Assembly (NCBI GenBank): GCA_035623985.1
Contig: DASPSJ010000109.1
Span: forward strand, 979-64,978
Direction of reading: 5' to 3'
Source of the DNA: Stellaceae bacterium
Lineage (GTDB): Bacteria > Pseudomonadota > Alphaproteobacteria > ATCC43930 > CGMCC-115725
DNA length: 64,000 nucleotides
Made by a program: the position numbers and the translations under genes. The stretch's first letter is position 1. Every line of letters starts with the position of its first letter. Below are positions 50,972 to 63,898 of the stretch, piece after piece. The notes below the pieces were generated by a model. It saw nothing but the letters and a program-made list of their open reading frames with translations, had not been told where the DNA came from and made no database searches.

Positions 50972-51562
50972 CTAATCACCGTGCTTTAGGGGATGGGTCT
51001 GATCTTGATAGCGATCAGTGGGGCGAGTTCCATAGGCCATGTCTGGAGGTAACTCTGTCTTTAATTCAAAGAAGGTGATCTGGCAGGGTCGATCGATCAT
51101 GGGAGTTAGTTTTATGTCCAACGGACCGTTGTTCATCATTTCTAGAATTATGGGGCCGCTCCAGCCTGGCTGAATCCATGGAGCGGTTTGATGCATACTC
51201 AAGCCAACGCGCGCGTAGGTGCTGCGACCTTCGATAAGTGCGATCATATTGGTCGGCACTTTTATGCTTTCATACGTCATCCCAAGAATGAAGGCGCTCG
51301 GATGTAGTATAAAGCTCTCGGGATCTCCGAACTCGTCTTTGATCTTGAGTTCTTTGGTTGTGAAAAAACCGGATCGCCCAAGTGCGCCAAGACCATCTGC
51401 CACGGAGACGATTAGGCCTGGTGCCTTCTCGAGTTTCGTGAAGCTGAAGCCCAGTCTGAGATCAATAGAGGCCTCTCCCCATTGTCGCGGCTCCAATGGA
51501 GGATCAAAATCTATGGTGCCAGCTTCGACCGCCGCTCGCAGATTGACCTGCGAGAGTATCAT
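50972..51562 (-). CDS. dCTP deaminase family protein (dUTPase-fold, Dcd-like)
   Basis: 196 aa. 'ASIDLRLG', 'GRSTYARVGLSMHQTAPWIQPGWSGPIILEMMNNG' aligns with E. coli Dcd 'GRSSLARLGLMVH...DPGWSGCIVLEFYNSG', including the catalytic Glu. The gene is visibly AT-richer than the flanking DNA. Confidence 0.75.
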   Translation of the reverse strand: MILSQVNLRAAVEAGTIDFDPPLEPRQWGEASIDLRLGFSFTKLEKAPGLIVSVADGLGALGRSGFFTTKELKIKDEFGDPESFILHPSAFILGMTYESIKVPTNMIALIEGRSTYARVGLSMHQTAPWIQPGWSGPIILEMMNNGPLDIKLTPMIDRPCQITFFELKTELPPDMAYGTRPTDRYQDQTHPLKHGD

Positions 51563-51570
51563 TGTGCCCC

Positions 51571-51867
51571 CTATGCCGCGGGCTTAACGTGCTCTTTCGC
51601 CCATTCGCGGTTCAAGTACGCCAAGCCGGTAGTTGTAAAGAAAGAACCAGACACCACAACCGTAATCGTGTCTCCGGACACTTCTTGTATGGTTGCCCGA
51701 ATGTATCCTTCGTGTTGTCCCTCAGCTCTTTCAACGTTTTCACGGCGAACGAAACCCGAGAGAGGTCCTTCCGCAGTTTCAAAGGTCACGAGCACCTCGG
51801 TTGGGAATGCGCCTCTCTGAACCTCACAGCGAATACGGACGGCTTGGCCAGGAGCAAAGCTCGGCAT
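51571..51867 (-). CDS. hypothetical 98-aa protein co-transcribed with the Dcd-like gene
   Basis: ORF ending 8 nt upstream of the Dcd-like start, with the same low-GC composition and a beta-rich sequence 'AVRIRCEVQRGAFPTEVLVTF...YIRATIQEVSGDTITVVVSG'. No family was recognised. Confidence 0.5.
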   Translation of the reverse strand: MPSFAPGQAVRIRCEVQRGAFPTEVLVTFETAEGPLSGFVRRENVERAEGQHEGYIRATIQEVSGDTITVVVSGSFFTTTGLAYLNREWAKEHVKPAA

Positions 51868-52064: not shown

Positions 52065-52343
52065 TCACTCCGCCTCGAACGCCCCGAGCTCCGGCCAAGG
52101 GGCTTGATCCGCCATTGCGGGGTGGAGACGTCCAGCCTGGCGGGTGAAGCTGAGCCGGCCGCGCTTCAGGCCGCAGAGCGGCTGCGCCAGCTCGGCGACC
52201 GCGGCTTTGGCATCGCGGCAATCGAAGATGACGAGGTCGGCCGGCCGGCCGACGGCGGTGCCGTACTCCGCGCGGCGCATCAGCCGCGCCGAGCGCGTCG
52301 TCAGCATGGCGAAGCACTCGGCGAGATCCTCCGCCCCGCCGAC
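52065..52343 (-). pseudogene. orphan duplicate of the 3' end (last ~90 codons) of the amidohydrolase gene; left copy of a 279-bp direct repeat
   Basis: It aligns base for base with 59196..59474, with 5 mismatches counted by eye. It translates to '...VGGAEDLAECFAMLTTRSARLMRRAEYG...PELGAFEAE' but lacks the rest of the gene. Confidence 0.85.
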
Positions 52344-52558: not shown

Positions 52559-55500
52559 TTACGACCAGTCGCGCTTTTCGACGTCTTGGTCGTGTCGGCG
52601 CGCGTCGTTTTCGTAAAATTGAGCGATGCGTTCCAGCATCGCGGCGGTTTGGGGCCATTCGATACGCAACGTCTGGGAAAAGCGCCGGTATTGCGCGGCG
52701 ATCTCACGCTCCTGATCGCCGCCATCGTTCATGGCCCGCCAGGTCGGGCCGCGCTTGCGGATTAATCCCATCATGACGCCGTCTTCGATTTCGGCACTAT
52801 GAAGCGTGTCAACGATGTCGCGCACCGGTGGTGGCGGCCAAATGCCGTCAGCCTCGGCGACAGCATAAGCGAAGACACTTCCAATTTGCCGGTCACAGAC
52901 CTTTCTGCGTCCTATCACCGCACACGCGCGCCGTGCCTCTGTAATCCATCGCTCAAGGGTATCCCGATTGATCGTAGCTCCTTCTTGGCCAGGGATTTGA
53001 GTCCACGAATTCAGGAGCTGATAACCGCGTGAGAACATTGCCTCCCGATTTTCAGACGAATCCGATTCCGGTTCGGAGATGCCGCTTTCGGGATCAGGCC
53101 GATAGACGATCCGGATTACCTCAGCAAAAAATGCCGGATCGTTCGCAAGTTCTCGATGAAGCGCGCTAAGTGACCTCTGCGAACGGCGGAGTATCGGACA
53201 ATACGCCCATTCAAGCTGCGCGATCGTGGAATTTTCGACTTCAGACCGCTTATCGAGCGCTTGAAGAACATGCTCAAGGTAATATTGGAAATTGCTGACA
53301 TCAAAATCGACACGCTTGTCCGTCAATGGTTCGCTCGCCGCGTTTTCAAGAATCGTAACGAGTGTGGCGGTCGGAATTTCTTTTCCGTGGCGTGCCGCGA
53401 CGGATACGGTTGCCCGTGGGCGGCCGACGGACATCAATTTGTTGATGGCAAACAGTCCTTCGCCGGGGACGCCGGCGGCGGTGATGGATGGGATCCGTCG
53501 CCAATACTCATTTTCGATATCTGATCCGAACACGCTGATGCGGTCCCAGAGGCGCCGCGATTCCCGAATAAGCAGGGCGACCACGATGACCATATCTTTG
53601 GTCCAGCTCTCAGCGAGCGCTCGGTCGAGCAGCTTATATCCCCAATCTGCATCGTTGGAGCGCAGGCAGCCGAGCACAATCCCTCGTGCGACATCGACCA
53701 ACTGGCTATCGCCCTTCAGACAGTGCACAAGGATGGTCTCGCGCCGCTCTTCGGTGATGGTTGCGCTGGCAATCGCGTTGCCGATGCTGAAGGGGCTTTC
53801 GACATAATGTGCGAAGCGGAAGACAGCATCGTCACCTTGTGTACCCAAGATTTTGTCGACGGCCTGCTGCCGCAAGAGATTTGCTTGAACCTCTTGAGCT
53901 TCCCAACCACCGTTCGGCGGATGTGGCAAGGGAACTTCACCATTGACGAAAAGCCAAGCAATCTGCTCGTCACGATCGTTGGGCGTTAGTTGCTCGTAGA
54001 TCGGGTCGAGCGGCGTGAGTTCAGCATCGGGCAGGGACCAGTCCGCATCGGGAAATTCCCGATGCTTATGAAGGAGCGAGCGGACAGCAACCCATACCGC
54101 CGATCGCGTTCTTTGGTCGAATTGGCCGACGCGCTCGCCGAGGAGAGTGATCGCGTTTCTCCGGTAGACTGGCGGAAGGTCGGCCAGGTGATCCACCAAC
54201 AACACCCAGCGGTTCCGGTCGGTGCCGACATCCTCAAGAAGACGTTTTGCAACTTCTTCGGCACTCTGGATCCAGAGTGGCGTCGTTATCTCTTCCTCGG
54301 CGCGGCCTTCGGAAAAATCGCGCCAGCGCGGCCGAGCTGATGGCCACATGGTGTCGTACGAAGTCGGCAGCAAGTCGCACATGAGGCGCCACGCAACCCC
54401 AGGTTCGTGCTTGCGAAGAATGGCATCCAGCACACCAAGCCGTTCGGTTAGAGATGCGTAGGTTTGGGGCATCCACAGTACGAACAAGTTGCGAAGGCTG
54501 TTAGCCGGACGATTACCGGAGCGTCCGCCGCCCGTATCCAGCGCGGCTAGCCGGGCGAGCAGGTGAGCCGCGCGGGAGATATATTTCGGGCTCCGAGCGA
54601 GGGTCTCCAGCGCCCAAAGCAAATGGCTATGATTGGCGCCGCTTGCGAGGGGCGTTTCGTCTTCAACAAACAACACCATGACCGGAGGATCGTTGAGGTC
54701 GAGGCTCGCCGCGACCGCGGATAAGAAGGTCTCCGGCGCGGCTTCGGCCAAAAGATCGAGAAGACGGGAAACCGACCACCACCGTCGTGCATCGGCATCG
54801 GTGAGAAGTTTTGAGACGATCGCCGCGGCTCTTTGCGCGGCGTCAGCGATACCGGCCTGATTGCCGAAGATCGCGAGTGCCATGAGCGTTTCGCTTAACC
54901 CGGCGCGGAGGAACTCCGAATGTTCCGGCATTTGCCCATGAATGGGCGCGTACCAGCGCTGGTCCTTGGGCATATCGAAACGAGGGTCGGGCCTGCCCAA
55001 CACATCAACCGCGACGTTGGCGTAAGCCTCAAGGGCCTGAGGCGTGAGGTAGGGTGCGAGCCGAAAGAGAGCGTCTCGTGGTGAGGCAATCTTCCACACA
55101 GAGCCGGATTTCCGTAGCGGGCTATCGGGGACTGTGAGCCAGGGGGTCAGTGACCGAACGATTGAATCGTAGTCGGCGTGAACGAGTTGCTCCATGACGG
55201 CACGGTCTGCGGGCTTTGCCTCATCCCAGGCCCCGGCAAGAAGCGCCGGGATCATGGTTGGGGCATGTAGCGGCGAAGCCCATTCGGGCACCATCCGCGC
55301 GTTTACGGACGGATGCAGCCTCCGAAATATTGCCAAACTGCCAGCCATGTCGCGTGCGACTTCGGATGCTTCTTGGTCGGGAAGCCCCATCGATTTGAGA
55401 GCAGCGTCTATCTCGATCCGGAGGGCACGGGAGAGGCGTATGACAGTTTCCGGTGTACCGACTTCGGACCCGAAGACGCTGTAGACGTGATGTCCTTGCC

Positions 55501-56599
55501 CCACAAGCCAGCGCGCTAATCCGGGATCGGCATTCTCAAGAACGATGATGAGCGACGTTGCGCTGTGCCCTAAAGCGCGTGCCTGGCCCGGCTCTGTGGC
55601 TATAAGGCACCGTGCCAGGTAGGAAAGGCGATAATCGGCAGGAAGGCGATCGATGGCGGCATAGAGGAACGCCATTGCCTCTTCCGGAGATTCCGCCTGG
55701 ATCGTGATTGGGGCGGGCTCGCCATAGAGCCAGTTCAGAGCCTGCGTGGTCTCTTCGTCGCGGCCAGCAAGAACGAGATCGGTGCTTATGGGCCATTCGG
55801 TCGATAACGACCACTCCTCCCAAACTTTCTCGATCTGGCGCAGGCCCAGCGGGAGCTTGCCGGTCAGCACGGCGAGCCAATGGCCGACGGCCGGGTTCAG
55901 CTCGATCCAATGAACAAGGTCAACGGCATCGAGCGCGCGGATATCGCCCCATTTTCCTTCTGCTTTTTTCTCGTTGAGCCACGCAGCCTTGCCGGAGAAC
56001 CGCAAGGGTGTCACGAAGACGAACGTCGAGTTCACCGGAACGATATCTTCCGGCTTTTGGCTGCGGTCGTTGAAAACCTTATCCGCCTTTTTGCGGATGT
56101 TGGCGGCTTGCGCCGTGAGCTCCCAACCGGATTCGCCTGCCGGAATATATTTCGAGCCGGCCGCGACGGTGCAACGGCCATCCCAACCGTGGAGGGAGAT
56201 GGCATCACCGCTCGGAAAGCGAAGCAAGGCCTCGTGCCCTTTTTCGGCGCGAATGAGGCGCGTCAGCAGTTCCGGCAGACGCGCTTGGCAATCGCGCGTT
56301 GCGGCCCATTGGCGTAGCTCGGTCTCATCGATGAAACGGAATGGGGTGTTGCCCTTTGGAAGGAAAGGCGGGTGTCCTGGCGGTGTTCCACGCACCGTGC
56401 CATCGTCGGAAAACGTAATGCGTTCTTTTTCGAAGCTTTTCACAATGGCATGAAGATTGTTCTGAATGGGTTCACGAAACCCGCGCTCAAAATCGGCGAC
56501 GGTGGATAGTGCCACGCCTGCTCGTTGCGCCAACGCGCGTTGAGACCAGCCAAGAAGCGCACGAGCGGCTTTGACCTGTGTGGCGGTGGGTATCGGCAT
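52559..56599 (-). CDS. 1346-aa protein of unknown function with N-terminal XRE-type HTH
   Basis: Uninterrupted ORF in a moderate-GC region. HTH 'QVKAARALLGWSQRALAQRAGVALSTVADFERG'. The following domain 'FPSGDAISLHGWDGRCTV...GESGWELTAQAANIRKKAD' is possibly nuclease-fold-like. The remainder is long and helical-repeat-like. No Walker A was seen by eye. Confidence 0.8.
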   Translation of the reverse strand: MPIPTATQVKAARALLGWSQRALAQRAGVALSTVADFERGFREPIQNNLHAIVKSFEKERITFSDDGTVRGTPPGHPPFLPKGNTPFRFIDETELRQWAATRDCQARLPELLTRLIRAEKGHEALLRFPSGDAISLHGWDGRCTVAAGSKYIPAGESGWELTAQAANIRKKADKVFNDRSQKPEDIVPVNSTFVFVTPLRFSGKAAWLNEKKAEGKWGDIRALDAVDLVHWIELNPAVGHWLAVLTGKLPLGLRQIEKVWEEWSLSTEWPISTDLVLAGRDEETTQALNWLYGEPAPITIQAESPEEAMAFLYAAIDRLPADYRLSYLARCLIATEPGQARALGHSATSLIIVLENADPGLARWLVGQGHHVYSVFGSEVGTPETVIRLSRALRIEIDAALKSMGLPDQEASEVARDMAGSLAIFRRLHPSVNARMVPEWASPLHAPTMIPALLAGAWDEAKPADRAVMEQLVHADYDSIVRSLTPWLTVPDSPLRKSGSVWKIASPRDALFRLAPYLTPQALEAYANVAVDVLGRPDPRFDMPKDQRWYAPIHGQMPEHSEFLRAGLSETLMALAIFGNQAGIADAAQRAAAIVSKLLTDADARRWWSVSRLLDLLAEAAPETFLSAVAASLDLNDPPVMVLFVEDETPLASGANHSHLLWALETLARSPKYISRAAHLLARLAALDTGGGRSGNRPANSLRNLFVLWMPQTYASLTERLGVLDAILRKHEPGVAWRLMCDLLPTSYDTMWPSARPRWRDFSEGRAEEEITTPLWIQSAEEVAKRLLEDVGTDRNRWVLLVDHLADLPPVYRRNAITLLGERVGQFDQRTRSAVWVAVRSLLHKHREFPDADWSLPDAELTPLDPIYEQLTPNDRDEQIAWLFVNGEVPLPHPPNGGWEAQEVQANLLRQQAVDKILGTQGDDAVFRFAHYVESPFSIGNAIASATITEERRETILVHCLKGDSQLVDVARGIVLGCLRSNDADWGYKLLDRALAESWTKDMVIVVALLIRESRRLWDRISVFGSDIENEYWRRIPSITAAGVPGEGLFAINKLMSVGRPRATVSVAARHGKEIPTATLVTILENAASEPLTDKRVDFDVSNFQYYLEHVLQALDKRSEVENSTIAQLEWAYCPILRRSQRSLSALHRELANDPAFFAEVIRIVYRPDPESGISEPESDSSENREAMFSRGYQLLNSWTQIPGQEGATINRDTLERWITEARRACAVIGRRKVCDRQIGSVFAYAVAEADGIWPPPPVRDIVDTLHSAEIEDGVMMGLIRKRGPTWRAMNDGGDQEREIAAQYRRFSQTLRIEWPQTAAMLERIAQFYENDARRHDQDVEKRDWS

Positions 56600-56716
56600 G
56601 AGAATATGACCTCATACTTTTTCTATGAGGTAGGATGAAAACTCGGCTGTTCAAGAGGCGAAGGAACCTGGCTATTTCCTATTTACCGTGTTGATAATAA
56701 TAGCTTAATTTTTATA

Positions 56717-56836
56717 GCAGAACACGCTTGTAATATTTCGACATAATATGATTGTAAATGATCGACATGATTTGCTTGTATAAATTCAACATGATATGCT
56801 TGTAAACATACGCAGAAAAAGCTTGTGGGACTACAA
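56717..56836. repeat. tandem array of four to five 24-bp units with core ACATGATATGCTTGTAAA (iteron/operator-like)
   Basis: Units start at 56717, 56741, 56765 and 56789 in exact 24-bp phase, with a fifth copy at ~56813 shifted by 1 nt. The core (G/A)(C/A)TTGT(A/G) recurs at 56726, 56750, 56774, 56798 and 56821. The array lies in the 259-bp divergent intergenic region. Confidence 0.8.
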
Positions 56837-56858: not shown

Positions 56859-58421
56859 ATGCCGACACCCCACGAAAAGCTCGCTGCATCGCTCAGCGCG
56901 CTTCATGAACTCCAAAAGGGCGGGCGGCGTGTCTTCCGATCGAGCGAGCTCACGCGCCTCCATCGCGAACGCTTGACCCGAAACGGCTTCCTCCGGGAAG
57001 TCATGAAGGGATGGCTTATTTCATCAAGCCCCGATACGCGGGCCGGCGATAGCGCGCCTTGGTATGCCTCGTTCTGGGAGTTTTGCGCCCGCTATTGCGA
57101 CGACCGCTTCGGCGATCGATGGCACCTCTCGCCCGAGCAATCGCTGCTGCTGCTCGCCGAGAACACGGTCATCCCGCAACAGCTTATCGTCTATAGCCCG
57201 AAAGCGACGAACCACGATCTGAAGCTGTTGTTCGGCACGTCGCTTTACGATCTCAGGCAGCCGGAAATGCCGGCGCCCGCGAACCTGACCACACGCGACG
57301 GCTTGCGCCTTTTTTCACCGGCTGCGGCTTTGGTGAAAGCCCCGGAGGCATTCTTCGCCCGTTATCCGATAGAAGCACAGATTGCGCTGGCGAGCCTCAG
57401 AGACGCGACCGACGTGCTTCGTCGTCTTCTTGACGGGGGGCATTCTGTCGTCGCCGGCAGGCTGGCGGGCGCGTTTCGCCGCGTCGGCCGCGCCGACGCC
57501 GCCGACGAGATCGTCAAGACGATGAAGGCCGCGAGCTACGATGTCCGGGAATCCGATCCCTTCGCGCCCCAGCAAACATTTGGCGCGCTGCGCGGGGCCG
57601 CCGAGGCTCCGATTGTCGCCCGTATTCAGGCCCTATGGGAAACGACGCGCGGCTTGGTCATCGATGCTTTTCCGAAAGCGCCCGGCTTACCGGCGGATAA
57701 AACCGCTTACCTGGATTTCGTCGACGAGATCTATGCGCACGACGCCTATCATTCGCTCTCCATCGAAGGGTATCGCGTCAGCCCAGAGCTGATTGACCGG
57801 GTGCGATCGGGGGCTTGGAATCCCGCTCAAAACGAGGCCGACCGCAACAGCCGTGACGCTTTGGCCGCGCGCGGCTATTGGCAGGCTTTTCAGGTCGTCA
57901 AAGCCGATGTCGCGGAAATCATCGGCGGCGCCAACCCCGGCGCCTTGGTTCGCACCACTCATCGCGATTGGTATCGCGAACTATTCCAGCCTTGCATTGC
58001 GGCGGGATTGCTCCCCGCAGTCGCGCTCGCCGGATATCGCAACGATGCGGTCTATCTGCGCACGTCGCGTTACGTTCCGCCTCGGTGGGAAGCGGTGCGG
58101 GACGCCATGCCGGCGCTGTTCGACCTGCTTGAGAATGAAAAGGAACCTGCCGCACGCGCCGTCTTGGGCCATTGGCTGTTCGGCTACATTCATCCTTATC
58201 CGGACGGAAACGGAAGAATGGCGCGCTTTCTCATGAATGCGATGCTTGCCTCCGGCGGCTATCCATGGACCGTGATTCGGGTGGAGGACCGGGACGCCTA
58301 TTTGTCGGCGCTGGACCGCGCCAGCATCGATACGGATATTCGGCCATTTGCGGCCTTTATCGCCGAGCGCGTGCGGCGGTCGATCGACCAAGCGACACGC
58401 GGCAGTCGTCCCTCACAATAA
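56859..58421 (+). CDS. Fic-domain protein (putative AMPylase) with N-terminal extension
   Basis: Fic motif 'HPYPDGNGRMARFLMN'. A candidate intramolecular inhibitory motif 'SLSIEG' (S/TxxxE(G/N)) lies upstream of the core. Confidence 0.85.
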   Translation: MPTPHEKLAASLSALHELQKGGRRVFRSSELTRLHRERLTRNGFLREVMKGWLISSSPDTRAGDSAPWYASFWEFCARYCDDRFGDRWHLSPEQSLLLLAENTVIPQQLIVYSPKATNHDLKLLFGTSLYDLRQPEMPAPANLTTRDGLRLFSPAAALVKAPEAFFARYPIEAQIALASLRDATDVLRRLLDGGHSVVAGRLAGAFRRVGRADAADEIVKTMKAASYDVRESDPFAPQQTFGALRGAAEAPIVARIQALWETTRGLVIDAFPKAPGLPADKTAYLDFVDEIYAHDAYHSLSIEGYRVSPELIDRVRSGAWNPAQNEADRNSRDALAARGYWQAFQVVKADVAEIIGGANPGALVRTTHRDWYRELFQPCIAAGLLPAVALAGYRNDAVYLRTSRYVPPRWEAVRDAMPALFDLLENEKEPAARAVLGHWLFGYIHPYPDGNGRMARFLMNAMLASGGYPWTVIRVEDRDAYLSALDRASIDTDIRPFAAFIAERVRRSIDQATRGSRPSQ

Positions 58422-59195: not shown

Positions 59196-59474
59196 TCACC
59201 CCGCCTCGAACGCTCCGAGCTCCGGCCAAGGGGCTTGATCCGCCATTGCGGGGTGGAGACGTCCAGCCTGGCGGGTGAAGCTGAGCCGGCCGCGCTTCAG
59301 GCCGCAGAGCGGCTGCGCCAGCTCGGCGATCGCGGCTTTGGCATCGCGGCAATCGAAGATGACGAGGTCGGCCGGCCGGCCGACGGCGATGCCGTACTCC
59401 GCGCGGCGCATCAGCCGCGCCGAGCGCGTCGTCAGCATGGCGAAGCACTCGGCGAGATCCTCGGCCCCGCCGAC
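59196..59474. repeat. right copy of the 279-bp direct repeat (forms the functional 3' end of the amidohydrolase gene)
   Basis: See 52065..52343. The repeat ends at the same '...CCGCCGAC' boundary in both copies. Confidence 0.85.
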
Positions 59475-60467
59475 ATGGCAGACATTGGCGTAAAGATTGG
59501 CCATGCGGATGAGCGAGGCGTCGCCATAGGGCGTGAAGGGGTTCAGCACGTTGTTGGTCGAGAGCGAGCAGTTGACGCCGAGGCGGAGCAGCTTGTGCGC
59601 CGGCGTCACGCCGCGCTGAACGCGGTGATCCTGCTGCCGGCCGCAGAGATAGAGATCGGTCGAGGGCAGCACGGTGACGGCAACGCCGACATCGGCAAGC
59701 CGCCGCGCGATCGCCTCGAAGCGCGCGGGCGGCACGGTGGAGAGCCGGGTGACGTGGCCGACGGCGACGCGGCCGCCATAGCCGTAGCGCTCGGTCGCGT
59801 CGCAGACATACTCGATGTCCATGCCTTCGGGGCCGTCGCCGAGGTCGAGATGCATGTCGATGTCGACGTCATGGGCGCGCGCGAGCGCGAAGATGCGATC
59901 GATCTGGCCGTGGGGATCGCTGTCGGTGTAGGGGACCGCGCCGATCACGCGCGCGCCGCGGCGAAGCGCCTCGGCGAGCAGTTCCTCGGTGCCGGGATTG
60001 TTGGTGAGGCCCTCTTGCGGAAAGGCGCAGATCTCGAGGTCGATCGCCCAGGCATAGTCCCGCGCAAGCTGCCGGATGGCGTCGAAGCCCAGAAAGCGGA
60101 TGGCGGGGTCGATCTCGACATGGGTGCGCATCAGCATGGTGCCGTTGAGGACGGCGCGCTCGAGCGTGCGCCGCGCCCGCGCGTAGACGTCGGCCTCGGT
60201 GAAGCGGCGCTTGGCCGCGGCGGTCAGCGCGACGGCTTCCTGCACGGTGCCCTCGCTCACGGTGCAGCGATCGATGATGCGCGTCTTGTCGAGATGGATG
60301 TGCGTCTCGACCAGCCCGGCCGAGACCAGGCGGCCGCCGGCATCGAGCCTTGCCGCCGCCGCTTCCAGCCGCGGCTCGATCGCGATGATGCGCCCGCCGG
60401 CGACGCCGATATCGGCGAGGCCGTCCTCGCGGCCGAAGATGCGGGCATTGGCGATAACGAGATCCAT
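59196..60467 (-). CDS. cytosine-deaminase-like metal-dependent amidohydrolase
   Basis: 423 aa with 'GLVETHIHLDK' (HxH metal site), 'VDIDMHLD', 'GHVTRL' and 'LSTNNVLNPFTP' motifs of the CodA/AtzC-type amidohydrolases. Confidence 0.8.
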   Translation of the reverse strand: MDLVIANARIFGREDGLADIGVAGGRIIAIEPRLEAAAARLDAGGRLVSAGLVETHIHLDKTRIIDRCTVSEGTVQEAVALTAAAKRRFTEADVYARARRTLERAVLNGTMLMRTHVEIDPAIRFLGFDAIRQLARDYAWAIDLEICAFPQEGLTNNPGTEELLAEALRRGARVIGAVPYTDSDPHGQIDRIFALARAHDVDIDMHLDLGDGPEGMDIEYVCDATERYGYGGRVAVGHVTRLSTVPPARFEAIARRLADVGVAVTVLPSTDLYLCGRQQDHRVQRGVTPAHKLLRLGVNCSLSTNNVLNPFTPYGDASLIRMANLYANVCHVGGAEDLAECFAMLTTRSARLMRRAEYGIAVGRPADLVIFDCRDAKAAIAELAQPLCGLKRGRLSFTRQAGRLHPAMADQAPWPELGAFEAG

Positions 60468-60481
60468 CCGCTCCTCCGCCT

Positions 60482-62965
60482 TCAGGAAGTGGGCTCGCGC
60501 CCGCCCAGATAGGCTTGGCGCAAGGCCGCGTCGCGGGCGATCTCGGCGGCGGCGCCGGCGCCGACCACCCGCCCGGTCTCGAGGATATAGGCGCGATCGG
60601 CGAGCGCCAGCGCCATGGCCGCCATCTGATCGACGAGCAGCAGCGTCACCCCTTCCTCGCGCAGCTCCGCCAGCGCGGCAAACAGGCGGGCGATGACCGC
60701 CGGGGCGAGGCCGAGCGAGGGCTCGTCGAGCAGCAGCACCCGCGGCGCCGCGACGAGCCCGCGCGCCAGGACCAGCATCTGCTGTTCGCCGCCGGAGAGC
60801 AGTCCGGCGCGCTGATGCCGCCGCTCGCGCAGGATGGGAAAGCGCGCGAGCAGGCGCTCGATATCGGCCTCGACCGCGGCGCCGGAGCGCGCATAGGCGC
60901 CGAGGCGTAGATTGTCGATGACGGCGAGATCGGGAAACACCTGGCGGCCCTCCGGCACCAGGACCACGCCTGTGCGGACGACGCGATGCGCCGGCTCTTG
61001 CGCGATGTCCACCGCGCCGACCCGTATCGTCCCGCTCACGGGCCGCAGCAAGCCGCTCACGGCGCGCATCATCGTCGATTTGCCCGCGCCATTGGCGCCG
61101 AGCACGGCCACCAGCTCGCCGGCGCGGACGTCGATCGTGATGTCTTTCAGCACCGGGACCGCGCCGTAGCCGGCCTCGAGCGCGGCGACGGACAGCGCCG
61201 GCGGCGCTTCGGCGGGCAGCGGCGAGGGCCGCGGCCGCGGCCGGACGTCGCCGTCGCCGAGATAGGCCTTGATGACCACGGGGTCGCTCTGCACCGCGGC
61301 CGGCGGTCCGGCGGCGATGCAGCGGCCGGCGTCGAGCACCACCACCCGGTCGGACAGCTCCATCACCAGCCCCATGTCGTGCTCGACCAGCACGACGGCG
61401 ATGCCTGCCGCGGCGATGCGGCGAAGCTGCGCCGCCAGGCGGCGCGTATCGGCTTCGCCGAGGCCGGCGGCGGGCTCGTCGAGCAGCAGCACGGCCGGCC
61501 GCGTCGCCAGCGCGCGCGCGATCTCGACCAGCCGCCTGTCGACATGGGCGAGATCGGCCGCGGCCCGGTCGCTCGGACCGTCATAGCCGACGAAGCGCAA
61601 CAGGCTTTCGGCGCGGCGCCGCTCTTCGGCCGCGCCGCGCCCCGAGACAACGGGAAAGAGGCCGCCGAGCCGCGGCCCGCGCAGCGCCACCGCGACGTTG
61701 TCGAGAACGGAAAGCTCCGCGAAGAGCCGGCTCGTCTGGAAGGTGCGGGCGATGCCGGCGCGCGCGACCTTGTGAGGCGGCAGGCCGGCAAGCGCCTGCG
61801 CGCCCAACCACACCGCCCCCGCCTTCGGCCGGCAGAAGCCGCTGAGCAGGTTGAGCAGCGTGCTCTTGCCGGCGCCGTTGGGCCCGATGAGGCTGGTGAT
61901 CTTGCCGGCTTTCGCGCGAAACGACACGTCGGCGACGGCGCGAATGCCGCCGAAGGCGACGGTAAGCGCCTCGGCCACGAGATCGCGGCCGCTCTCGCCG
62001 CGCAGGCCGTCGCCGGCGGGCGCGGTCGCGGCGGCCCGCGGCGCGCGCGGCAGCCGCCGCGCCACGGCCCCGACGATCCCCTCCGGCGCCAGCCACAGCA
62101 CCAGCAGCAGCGCCGCGCCGAAGCACAGGAGCTGATACTCGGCAAAGCGCGCGCCGAGCTGGGGCAGCAGCACGACGACGATCGCGCCGACCAGCGGGCC
62201 CGCGGTGGTGCCGGCGCCGCCGATGATCACCACCAGCAGGAACAGGATCGACTGAAAGAAGGTGAAGCTGCTCGGCCCGATGAAACCGCTCAGCGGCGCG
62301 AAGACGGCGCCGGCAAGGCCCGCCGCCGCCGCAGACAAGGCGAAGGCGGTGATGCGCACGGCGACGAGGTTGAGGCCCAGCGACTGAGCCGCCGCTTCCG
62401 AGGCGCGCACCGCGCGCATCGCGCGTCCCCAGGCACCCTCTCGCAAGAGATGAAAGAGAGCGAGCAGGAGCGCGGCGAGCACGAGCGCGAGGATCGCCGT
62501 GTCCTTGATGGCGAAGGCGTGGCCCAAAAGCATCGGCGGCGGGATGTTCATGAGGCCGTTGGCGCCGCCGGTCAGCGAGCGCCATTCGATCGCCGCGTTC
62601 TGGACGATGAAGCCGAAGGCGATGGTCACCATGGCGAGATAAGGTCCCGCGACGCGCAGCGCCGGCAGCGCGAGCGCGACGCCGAGCGCGCCCGCCACCG
62701 CCCCGGCGATCGGCAGGGCGAGCCAGAAATCGACGCCGTAGCGCGTCGTCAGGATCGCCGTCGCATAGGCGCCCAGCGCATAGAAGCCGACATGGCCCAG
62801 CGAGACCTGGCCCGTGAGCCCCAGCAGCACGTTGAGCCCGACGCCGACCATGGCGGTGAGGCACACCATGGCGATGAGATAGACCTGATAGCCGTTGCCG
62901 AGCCGGCAGCCGGCGACGGCCAGCGCGGCGAGCGCGGCCGACGCGGCGAGCGCGCGAGCGCTCAC
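60482..62965 (-). CDS. fused branched-chain-amino-acid-type ABC transporter: LivM-like permease + LivG-like ATPase + LivF-like ATPase in one ORF
   Basis: The GTG start at 62965 overlaps the livH stop (GTGA). The permease part contains 'GQVSLGHVGFYALGAY'. The first ATPase has 'GPNGAGKSTLLN' and 'LLLDEPAAGL'; the second has 'GANGAGKSTMM', 'LSGGEQQML' and 'LLLDEPSLGL'. There is no in-frame stop between the modules. Confidence 0.75.
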   Translation of the reverse strand: MSARALAASAALAALAVAGCRLGNGYQVYLIAMVCLTAMVGVGLNVLLGLTGQVSLGHVGFYALGAYATAILTTRYGVDFWLALPIAGAVAGALGVALALPALRVAGPYLAMVTIAFGFIVQNAAIEWRSLTGGANGLMNIPPPMLLGHAFAIKDTAILALVLAALLLALFHLLREGAWGRAMRAVRASEAAAQSLGLNLVAVRITAFALSAAAAGLAGAVFAPLSGFIGPSSFTFFQSILFLLVVIIGGAGTTAGPLVGAIVVVLLPQLGARFAEYQLLCFGAALLLVLWLAPEGIVGAVARRLPRAPRAAATAPAGDGLRGESGRDLVAEALTVAFGGIRAVADVSFRAKAGKITSLIGPNGAGKSTLLNLLSGFCRPKAGAVWLGAQALAGLPPHKVARAGIARTFQTSRLFAELSVLDNVAVALRGPRLGGLFPVVSGRGAAEERRRAESLLRFVGYDGPSDRAAADLAHVDRRLVEIARALATRPAVLLLDEPAAGLGEADTRRLAAQLRRIAAAGIAVVLVEHDMGLVMELSDRVVVLDAGRCIAAGPPAAVQSDPVVIKAYLGDGDVRPRPRPSPLPAEAPPALSVAALEAGYGAVPVLKDITIDVRAGELVAVLGANGAGKSTMMRAVSGLLRPVSGTIRVGAVDIAQEPAHRVVRTGVVLVPEGRQVFPDLAVIDNLRLGAYARSGAAVEADIERLLARFPILRERRHQRAGLLSGGEQQMLVLARGLVAAPRVLLLDEPSLGLAPAVIARLFAALAELREEGVTLLLVDQMAAMALALADRAYILETGRVVGAGAAAEIARDAALRQAYLGGREPTS

Positions 62966-63834
62966 AGCTTCCGCGTCCCCGCGGCGCCGAGCAGGCCGTT
63001 CGGCATCGCCGCCAGCGCCAGGATGACGACGGCGAAAGTCAGGATTTGCGTATAGGTCGAGCCGAAGAGCGCGGTGATCATCGCCTCGACCGCGCCGTAG
63101 CAGAAGCCGGCGAGCACCACGCCCCAGGGGCTGGCGATGCCGCCGACGATGGCGACGGCAAAAGCCTTGATGCCGAACAGCGTTCCCATATCGGAAGAAA
63201 CGTTGAACAGCGGCGCGATGAGGATGCCGGCGATGCCGGCGAAGACGGTCGAGACGGCATAGGCAAGAGCAATGGCGCGGCCGACATCGATGCCCATCAG
63301 CCGCGCCGCGTCCTGGTTTTGCGCCACCGCGAGCAGCGCCTTGCCGAGCCGCGTGCCGCGCGCCAGCAAATGGAGGACCGCGGCGGCGGCGAGCCCCACC
63401 GCCGGGATCGCAAGCTGCAGCGGCAGCACCGGGATGCCGGCGAGGTCGAGCGGCGTATCGGCCAGCACCGAAGGGTAGTTGCGCGGCTCCCTGCCGAAGA
63501 GAAAGAGCGTCGCGTTCTCGAGAATGATGCCGAGCGCCACCGTCGCCATCAGCCAGCCATTGGAGCCGCGCGCGGCAAAGGGCCGGACGGCGATGCGCTC
63601 GACGATCACGCCCCAGAAGCCGCACAGCAGCAGCGCCAGAAGGATGGCGGCGAGCGGCGGCCAGCCCAGCGTCACGGCGAAGCTGTAGCAGAGCACGGCG
63701 CCCAGCATCATCGAGCTGCCCTGCGCGAAATTGACCGTGCCCGAGACCGCGTAGGTGACGGAGAAGCCCAGCGCGAGCAGCCCGTACATGCTGCCGAGTC
63801 CGAGGCCGGAAACCAGGGCGAGGGCGATCAGCAC
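62962..63834 (-). CDS. livH: branched-chain-amino-acid-type ABC transporter permease (LivH-like)
   Basis: 290 aa with 'GLGLGSMYGLLALGFSVTYAVSGTVNFAQGS' and about 8 TM segments. Confidence 0.85.
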   Translation of the reverse strand: MLIALALVSGLGLGSMYGLLALGFSVTYAVSGTVNFAQGSSMMLGAVLCYSFAVTLGWPPLAAILLALLLCGFWGVIVERIAVRPFAARGSNGWLMATVALGIILENATLFLFGREPRNYPSVLADTPLDLAGIPVLPLQLAIPAVGLAAAAVLHLLARGTRLGKALLAVAQNQDAARLMGIDVGRAIALAYAVSTVFAGIAGILIAPLFNVSSDMGTLFGIKAFAVAIVGGIASPWGVVLAGFCYGAVEAMITALFGSTYTQILTFAVVILALAAMPNGLLGAAGTRKL

Positions 63835-63898
63835 GGCGATGGGCGTCCAGGATGCACCGGCGCTCGGCGCCCATCGGCGCCAGCGCCGGCGCCCGCGG

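Follow-up and report, generated by a model that had tools for sequence, protein, structure and literature searches.

In this study, we describe a giant gene and the palindrome in front of it in a 64,000-nucleotide stretch of DNA (the window) from Stellaceae bacterium, an alphaproteobacterium (assembly GCA_035623985.1, contig DASPSJ010000109.1, positions 979 to 64,978 of the forward strand). The gene, read on the minus strand, encodes a helix-turn-helix (HTH) domain fused to a long body that lacks a Walker A motif and resembles the antiviral protein Avs8. The open reading frame (ORF) list and its translation bear out the uninterrupted 4-kb frame read in a preliminary description of this DNA, with an ATG start and 1346 amino acids (aa). 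The gene, its domains and the adjoining regulatory sequence are as follows:

52559..56599, minus strand: giant gene, 1346 aa plus stop, HTH-fused, Walker-A-less and Avs8-like (ORF list and translation)
56390..56599, minus strand, aa 1-70: XRE/Cro-C1 HTH of restriction-modification (R-M) controller or antitoxin type (HTH_3, Control_protein, 4yba)
55790..56344, minus strand, aa 86-270: restriction-endonuclease-like (PD-(D/E)xK) domain, presumed effector (model, fold matches, conservation)
55205..55789, minus strand, aa 271-465: AAA+/STAND-like alpha/beta domain with helical lid (fold matches, P-loop register from hhalign)
55010..55204, minus strand, aa 466-530: winged-helix-like element of helices and a beta-hairpin (DSSP of the model)
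52562..55009, minus strand, aa 531-1346: HEAT/ARM-like alpha-solenoid, presumed ligand sensor (model, fold matches)
56610..56630: palindrome CCTCATAgaaaaagTATGAGG, presumed operator of the giant's own HTH, 10 nt upstream of the ATG, with the core TCATA-N7-TATGA at 56612-56628
56604-56611: extra half-site GGTCATAT beside the palindrome

Scans of the window protein with Pfam, NCBIfam and PADLOC returned nothing beyond the HTH, and searches of PDB sequences with the profile of its family and with that of a sister family (P0267, below) found HTH proteins only. The domain order was obtained from two AlphaFold2 models, each built on a 58-sequence alignment, one of aa 78-470 (predicted local distance difference test, pLDDT, 89.4; predicted template modelling score, pTM, 0.83) and one of aa 465-1346 (pLDDT 89.7, pTM 0.70), which place behind the HTH a restriction-endonuclease-like domain, an AAA+/STAND-like domain with its lid, a winged helix and a HEAT-like solenoid of ~800 aa. 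PADLOC and structural modelling with a fold search had both been proposed in the preliminary description; the former gave the HTH only, and the latter supplied the nuclease, AAA+/STAND and solenoid assignments. The XRE-type HTH recognised there is confirmed by Pfam HTH_3 at aa 9-55 (E 5.9e-9) and by the PADLOC family Control_protein (E 2e-12), and the best PDB match of the family profile is 4yba, 'Regulatory protein C' (E 4e-18), followed by HipB and P22 C2. The alpha/beta domain at aa ~86-270 has fold matches to FokI (prob 0.99, 173 columns) and to a phage 'Restriction endonuclease', and its conserved residues are G138, D140, G141, W159, E160 and K171, among which D140, E160 and K171 are kept in 99-100% of 116 relatives down to 28% identity; together these support the earlier guess of a PD-(D/E)xK-like fold.

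The N-terminal model further matched domains 1-2 of the RFC small subunit (2chg, TMt 0.49, 210 columns, prob 1.0), as well as NSF, Apaf-1, Dark, the NRC2 and NRC4 resistosomes and ORC/Cdc6; a viral fold library returned AAA+/RFC matches too, so both libraries agree, at modest scores. In the following element DSSP assigned strands to model residues 31-34 and 37-40, corresponding to aa 495-504, and the position of aa 466-530 would fit the winged-helix domain (WHD) of STAND modules. A beta-alpha-beta core, a lid, a hairpin and then repeats are thus found in the order of the STAND architecture of nucleotide-binding domain, helical domain 1 and WHD, with modest scores (E 3e-3 to 5e-2). The solenoid matched importin-beta, SF3B1 and CAND1 at E about 1e-4 and carries near its C-terminus a motif, G1293, G1294 and E1297, conserved in the 116 relatives. 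The more than 1000 residues of helical repeat described earlier were therefore overstated: a solenoid is present, of ~800 aa, and aa ~271-530 belong to the AAA+/STAND-like domain and the winged helix.

The absence of a Walker A motif, suspected by eye in the preliminary description, extends to the relatives examined, with GxxxxGK[ST] found in 0 of 116 and 0 of 79 sequences (195 in all). Its position is occupied by A302-ESPEEAM-309, in which E307 is conserved at 97%, and an acidic residue resembling that of Walker B is retained as E355 in LIIVLE. In the 116 relatives, E307, H370, R427, W440 and D465 are the conserved residues of this domain.

The contig of a 61%-identical homologue (P0003) holds a second giant of ~1350 aa, P0267, 2 kb away. 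At this locus (L093, 7001-17134; also at L094) the two giants are convergent within a region resembling an integrative and conjugative element (ICE; ParB_N, DUF7007, DUF6915), one with an XRE HTH and no P-loop, the other with an MqsA HTH and a P-loop. Behind the P-loop giant, and overlapping it, comes a 406-aa gene without any family match. P0267 carries, besides its MqsA-type HTH, the Mrr-type motif DGGEDARIEW...QFQLKAG, the Walker A motif GLSGVGKSRL and the Walker B motif VIVVDRCDE, and it matches the PADLOC family PD-Lambda-4_A at E 8.4e-91 over aa 89-1346. BLASTP of the window protein against P0267 is not significant on its own (best E 0.016); it took profile comparisons to settle the homology. 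Using hhalign, the window family aligned with the P0267 family (29 sequences) at a prob of 93% and E 3.3e-7 over 1023 collinear columns, spanning aa 7-1133. In this register GLSGVGKS lies on A302-ESPEEAM-309, with the Walker A lysine falling on A308 and the Walker B aspartate on E355, and in the nuclease D139 and Q162 of the P0267 family fall on D140 and E160, respectively. In addition, 11 of 30 window-family members matched PD-Lambda-4_A directly (best E 1.1e-5); HTH families aside, every other PADLOC family was matched by two of them at most.

Now named Avs8, PD-lambda-4 came to light in a functional selection in E. coli (10.1101/2025.07.02.662641; see also Vassallo et al. 2022; Nagy et al. 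2025 preprint; Lee et al., Nature 2026). Avs8A combines an Mrr-family nuclease with a STAND P-loop NTPase. It binds HK97-fold major capsid proteins in their monomeric form (dissociation constant 127 nM for lambda gpE) and, once bound to capsid protein, degrades double-stranded DNA with Mg2+ and ATP; mutants of its nuclease site lose defence, and Avs8B is dispensable (10.1101/2025.07.02.662641). A systematic study of STAND proteins confirmed capsid sensing by Avs8 (PMC13581612). KpAvs8 is reported to lack nucleotide-binding residues naturally (PMC13581612 and its preprint), thus a P-loop-less Avs8 has a published precedent. The homology to validated PD-lambda-4A/Avs8A, which works alone, supports the view of the giant as a single-gene defence or conflict candidate, and the hhalign comparison with the 11 direct matches supersedes the earlier statement that it could not be assigned to any described defence family. 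We therefore regard the giant as probably a divergent antiviral STAND-type receptor of the Avs8 (PD-lambda-4A) lineage that has lost its P-loop, gained an HTH and come to lie on a 7.1-kb insert.

Several points weigh against this interpretation. The window protein itself has no PD-Lambda-4_A match at E <= 1, and its proposed link to Avs8 is made through profile-profile comparison and through relatives. The last ~200 aa do not align with the Avs8A-type family, therefore the sensor may recognise something else. E-values of the N-terminal-half fold matches are weak (3e-3 to 5e-2), with a TM-score of about 0.3 over the whole query. Where the canonical (D/E)xK has its lysine, the aligned window protein has none (E160-L-T), and catalysis would need K171 of the next helix. 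E. coli Avs8A needed ATP in vitro (10.1101/2025.07.02.662641), so that a Walker-A-less protein may work differently, or may not work as a nuclease switch. Unless KpAvs8 is a member of the P-loop-less clade, we infer the antiphage function of that clade by analogy. Finally, a strict sigma-70 consensus promoter was not found in the region between the giant gene and the divergent Fic gene of the window.

More than 423 full-length homologues (~1350 aa, 40-62% identity) were found, named only 'HTH transcriptional regulator', and a relative is encoded in 199 of 185,579 genomes (one genome per species), with hosts among the Alpha-, Beta- and Gammaproteobacteria, Verrucomicrobia, Acidobacteria, Planctomycetes, Nitrospirae, Myxococcota, Chlamydiales and Actinomycetes. 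The distribution of the family is patchy, and the family has spread horizontally. Full-length copies lie on 20 plasmids or chromids and also in chromosomal islands, and no full-length homologue occurs in 50,697 phage records. The protein WP_022645558.1, 99% identical to a homologue of Raoultella planticola, is present in 82 of 5426 complete E. coli genomes (1.5%). In E. coli FDAARGOS_497 (L097, NZ_CP033850.1 3660131-3682120) the island of the homologue adjoins dhaR, and the homologue is flanked by a divergent gene for a 1727-aa hypothetical protein and a DEAD/DEAH helicase gene.

A profile of aa 84-532 recovered a much wider set, with 4458 clusters at 50% identity, 2423 of them at E <= 1e-30. 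Since most of these clusters are ~1260 aa long and begin directly at the nuclease-like domain, the HTH is an addition within one subfamily. A distant relative on the Shewanella baltica plasmid pS19502 (L082, 152-4264) has an XRE-type HTH of its own (Pfam HTH_3) and is annotated 'HigA family antitoxin', and on an Adhaeribacter plasmid (L083, 7001-10789) an HTH-less relative follows separate genes for an HTH protein, ImmA/IrrE and a YhcG-type PDDEXK protein. These two relatives have 28-29% identity and differ in their N-termini, and it appears that HTHs of antitoxin or controller type were taken up on repeated occasions. A conserved pairing of HTH-less forms with a YhcG-type PDDEXK gene was considered and rejected, because other HTH-less loci have different neighbours.

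The palindrome upstream of the giant gene is unique in the window and had no match in 100 shuffles. When the upstream regions of 81 loci were aligned, the palindrome consensus ATGTCATATAtttCATATGACAT was found immediately in front of the start codon or spanning it, irrespective of phylum and of neighbouring gene. If up to one mismatch is allowed, TCATA-N7-TATGA is present between -120 and +40 of the start in 70 of the 81 loci, against a background of 12 matches in 1.48 Mb, or 0.0013 expected per 160 nt. The left half-site is preceded by a TTGnnn hexamer at a distance of 13-19 nt (mostly 13-15) in 37 of these 70 loci, and there a TATATT-like -10 element falls inside the palindrome and an in-frame ATG inside the right half-site, which suggests a short-leader or leaderless transcript whose promoter would be covered by the bound protein. 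Such a promoter-on-palindrome layout is the arrangement expected for autorepression. An HTH_3 domain and a palindrome at the gene's own promoter, here a predicted operator, are the marks of an XRE/controller-type autoregulator, and the HTH most likely represses the giant's own gene.

We propose that the ~800-residue C-terminal solenoid would act as the sensor, wrapping a phage protein that, by analogy to Avs8, is possibly an HK97-fold major capsid protein. Binding of the ligand would lift autoinhibition through the STAND-like module and, as the Walker A loop has been lost, this switch would be independent of P-loop nucleotide binding. The N-terminal restriction-endonuclease-like domain would then cut DNA, so that infection is aborted and the host would be protected from phage. 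A dimer of the XRE-type HTH would bind the palindrome overlapping its own promoter and start codon, and this autorepression would keep a potentially self-toxic nuclease low, as controller proteins of R-M systems do.

The GC content is 0.50-0.62 across 51-59 kb of the window, compared with about 0.70 in the flanks. A repeat search found a 279-bp direct repeat (98% identical, spacing 7131), a copied 3' end of an amidohydrolase gene, which flanks the giant gene and the divergent Fic gene. The further features of this region are:

52065..52343: left copy of the direct repeat, an orphan amidohydrolase 3' end with a weak C-terminal Amidohydro_3 match, one edge of the insert
59196..59474: right copy of the direct repeat, forming the intact amidohydrolase gene's 3' end and the opposite edge of the insert
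59196-60467, minus strand: intact amidohydrolase gene (Amidohydro_3, E 1.7e-31)
56859-58421, plus strand: Fic gene (SoFic-like), 520 aa, divergent from the giant gene, with an intact HPYPDGNGRMAR motif, neighbouring cargo
56726-56806: 24-bp tandem repeat, 3.4 copies, consensus GCTTGTAAATTTCGACATGATAT, in the Fic-giant intergenic region (TRF score 93)

Neither an integrase nor a tRNA gene was found between the direct repeats or at the island borders. The giant gene reached this genome on a 7.1-kb insert with recognisable edges, in agreement with the horizontally acquired islet described earlier, and the insert looks like a decayed or trans-mobilised integrative element. Just beyond the direct repeats, next to asd, a dCTP deaminase gene of standard size (196 aa, TIGR02274 above cutoff, no PADLOC match; window 50972-51867) is accompanied by a 98-aa ORF at about 50% GC, the low GC suggesting a separate acquisition. 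A minus-strand ORF at 60482-63874 (1130 aa) fuses a branched-chain amino-acid permease domain with two ABC ATPase domains, an unusual single-polypeptide arrangement for an ABC importer.

The 24-bp repeat corresponds to what had been called an iteron-like array. The repeat exists; the conserved regulatory element of the family is the palindrome. As a family operator the repeat was set aside because the upstream comparison picks out the palindrome, the other loci not having been searched for the repeat. It differs from the palindrome and may serve as operator for the unassigned first 287 aa of Fic.

The Fic gene itself, recorded earlier as a divergent neighbour, is borne out (Pfam Fic, E 8e-14; PADLOC SoFic, E 1.8e-21). 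Its role as a functional partner is not: no Fic gene is adjacent in any of the four nearest homologues examined (P0002, P0003, P0005 and P0006), nor at L002 (55% identical), and the closest relatives of the window protein stand alone or on ICE-like DNA, plasmids or small inserts. Fic is neighbouring cargo and not an obligate partner. The partner changes with the clade, being AbiE, Fic, HipA or none, and Fic-linked loci arise at three or more places in the tree of the giant. ORF clustering of 82 loci found as recurrent neighbours only AbiEi-AbiEii (38 loci), Fic (7, including the window) and HipA (2). The AbiEi-AbiEii pair (Pfam AbiEi_4 and AbiEii) is divergent and directly upstream, and the AbiE-linked giants form one clade of the tree, in which AbiEii and giant distances covary (Mantel r 0.92, 0 of 2000 permutations, 28 loci, identities down to 45%); therefore AbiEi, AbiEii and the giant have travelled together across phyla. 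Across this AbiE clade (L008, L012, L037, L060 and 34 further loci) a conserved TTGTCAAC...GAACAGTTG segment lies on the AbiEi side, ~100 bp upstream of the giant gene. It is probably an AbiE promoter or operator, in which case two promoters, each autoregulated, would adjoin in opposite directions. A resemblance of the first 300 aa of the window's Fic protein to AbiEi was also considered and then dropped, as the hhalign match was not significant (E 0.23, a weak test with a single-sequence template).

Other neighbours of the family include a Dsr1-like gene, PDC-S71, Mrr_cat genes (also Mrr_cat-nSTAND3), Schlafen/AlbA_2, a ResIII/DEAD helicase, insertion sequence elements, ICE genes and integrases, and a Hachiman pair (HamA and helicase) lies beside a member of the sister family (L098). 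Judged from these neighbours, the context of the family is that of mobile defence islands.

The divergent toxin modules raise an alternative, namely that the giant is a signal-sensing transcription factor of the STAND/MalT/AfsR type, whose solenoid senses a ligand, whose HTH switches the divergent toxin together with its own gene and whose nuclease-like domain is a mere scaffold. The N-terminal HTH and the strongly conserved palindrome would fit such a regulator, as would the toxin-type module lying divergent and directly upstream in 47 of the 82 loci and the co-evolution of AbiEii with the giant, and the STAND superfamily does include transcription regulators (PMC13581612). However, the ~1260-aa forms without an HTH dominate the 4458 clusters, the nuclease triad is invariant even at 28% identity, the palindrome lies on the giant's own start and not on the partner side, and no toxin partner accompanies the nearest relatives of the window protein. 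Moreover, AbiEi and HipB autoregulate, and AbiE, HipA and Fic modules are normally self-regulated. We thus consider this alternative unlikely. An extension of the receptor interpretation is decidedly unlikely, according to which the P-loop-less clade would be an NLR-like (nucleotide-binding leucine-rich repeat) receptor class without a nucleotide switch, carrying the conserved acidic motif AESxxEA in the former P-loop; in the HTH subfamily, sensing of a phage protein would release the operator and derepress both the giant's own gene and the divergent toxin (AbiE, Fic or HipA), making a sensor-plus-toxin composite and more than a pair of adjacent defence genes.

It is very unlikely that the giant is an antitoxin or addiction protein which stabilises a mobile element and has no antiphage role. 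Its genes do occur on plasmids and ICEs, and antitoxin-like HTHs recur in the group, weakly of the HipB/Y4mF type here, HigA in Shewanella and MqsA in the sister family; however, the database names 'HigA family antitoxin' and 'MqsA family antitoxin' rest only on the 60-70-residue HTH, HTH-less members are in the majority, and the body is homologous to a validated defence protein. The protein does not resemble type II antitoxins (HipB, HigA, MqsA) either in score (TIGR03070 at 27 bits, cutoff 71.65) or in size (1346 aa), and gene clustering of the 82 loci found no cognate toxin conserved across the family. It is highly improbable that the giant is the remnant of an Avs that has decayed and lost its function, a pseudo-enzyme persisting as a passenger of a degraded island, since against the lost Walker A, the missing integrase and the displaced (D/E)xK lysine stand an intact 4-kb ORF, a mean column identity of 54% over 30 homologues from several phyla, some 100 positions with a conservation of 90% or more in the 116 sequences, a conserved replacement motif (E307 at 97%), the 2423 clusters at E <= 1e-30, the 99%-identical copy across 82 E. 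coli genomes and the conserved promoter palindrome, all indicating purifying selection. All three alternatives are less supported than an Avs8-lineage receptor because most of the superfamily is HTH-less, the nuclease residues do not vary and the protein is strongly conserved.

The kind of system is already known, being an Avs and specifically Avs8/PD-lambda-4. Within the literature searched, three things appear to be new: how large the P-loop-less clade is, the fusion to an HTH together with a conserved operator candidate, and the co-evolving AbiE cassette. Standard defence annotation overlooks this clade, PADLOC being silent on the window protein as a defence system and databases naming such proteins 'helix-turn-helix transcriptional regulator' or antitoxin, although it counts thousands of lineages from nine phyla or more and is present in 1.5% of the complete genomes of E. 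coli. The clade is a natural experiment, on a large scale, on whether signalling by a STAND/NLR-type receptor is possible in the absence of a P-loop, a question that bears on degenerate plant and animal NLRs. The conserved operator candidate provides a directly testable case of a self-repressing immune receptor, and the co-evolution with AbiE a tractable example of a possibly co-operating defence cassette.

Among known systems, Avs8/PD-lambda-4 has the domain order that the window protein shows behind its HTH, where a nuclease-like domain of PD-(D/E)xK (Mrr-type) fold is followed by a STAND-type NTPase fold, a winged helix and an extended helical region, the presumed sensor. Without the HTH the size is similar (about 1260-1280 aa), both occur in mobile or defence-island contexts, and single-gene action would be common to both, given the dispensable Avs8B and the function proposed here for the window protein. 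On the other hand, the window family differs in having no Walker A (0/195), a displaced nuclease lysine, and an added XRE HTH with a promoter palindrome; the window protein fails the PADLOC model, ~200 of its C-terminal aa are not alignable, and no conserved B partner was found in the clustering of the 82 window-family loci. Controller (C) proteins of R-M systems resemble the window HTH in sequence (4yba, Control_protein), in the palindrome at their own promoter and in limiting a self-toxic nuclease, but they are separate regulators of 80-100 aa, whereas the window HTH is fused to the nuclease-sensor and has no methyltransferase. The alphaproteobacterial P0267 family, which NCBI names 'MqsA family antitoxin', has the same ~1350 aa, an antitoxin-type HTH before the nuclease and the same hosts, and differs by its Walker A GLSGVGKS (28/29), Walker B VVVDRC, canonical QxK, MqsA-type HTH and full PD-Lambda-4_A match. 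KpAvs8 of Klebsiella (Lee et al., Nature 2026), likened here by description only, is reported to have the same missing nucleotide-binding residues and is treated as a capsid-sensing Avs.

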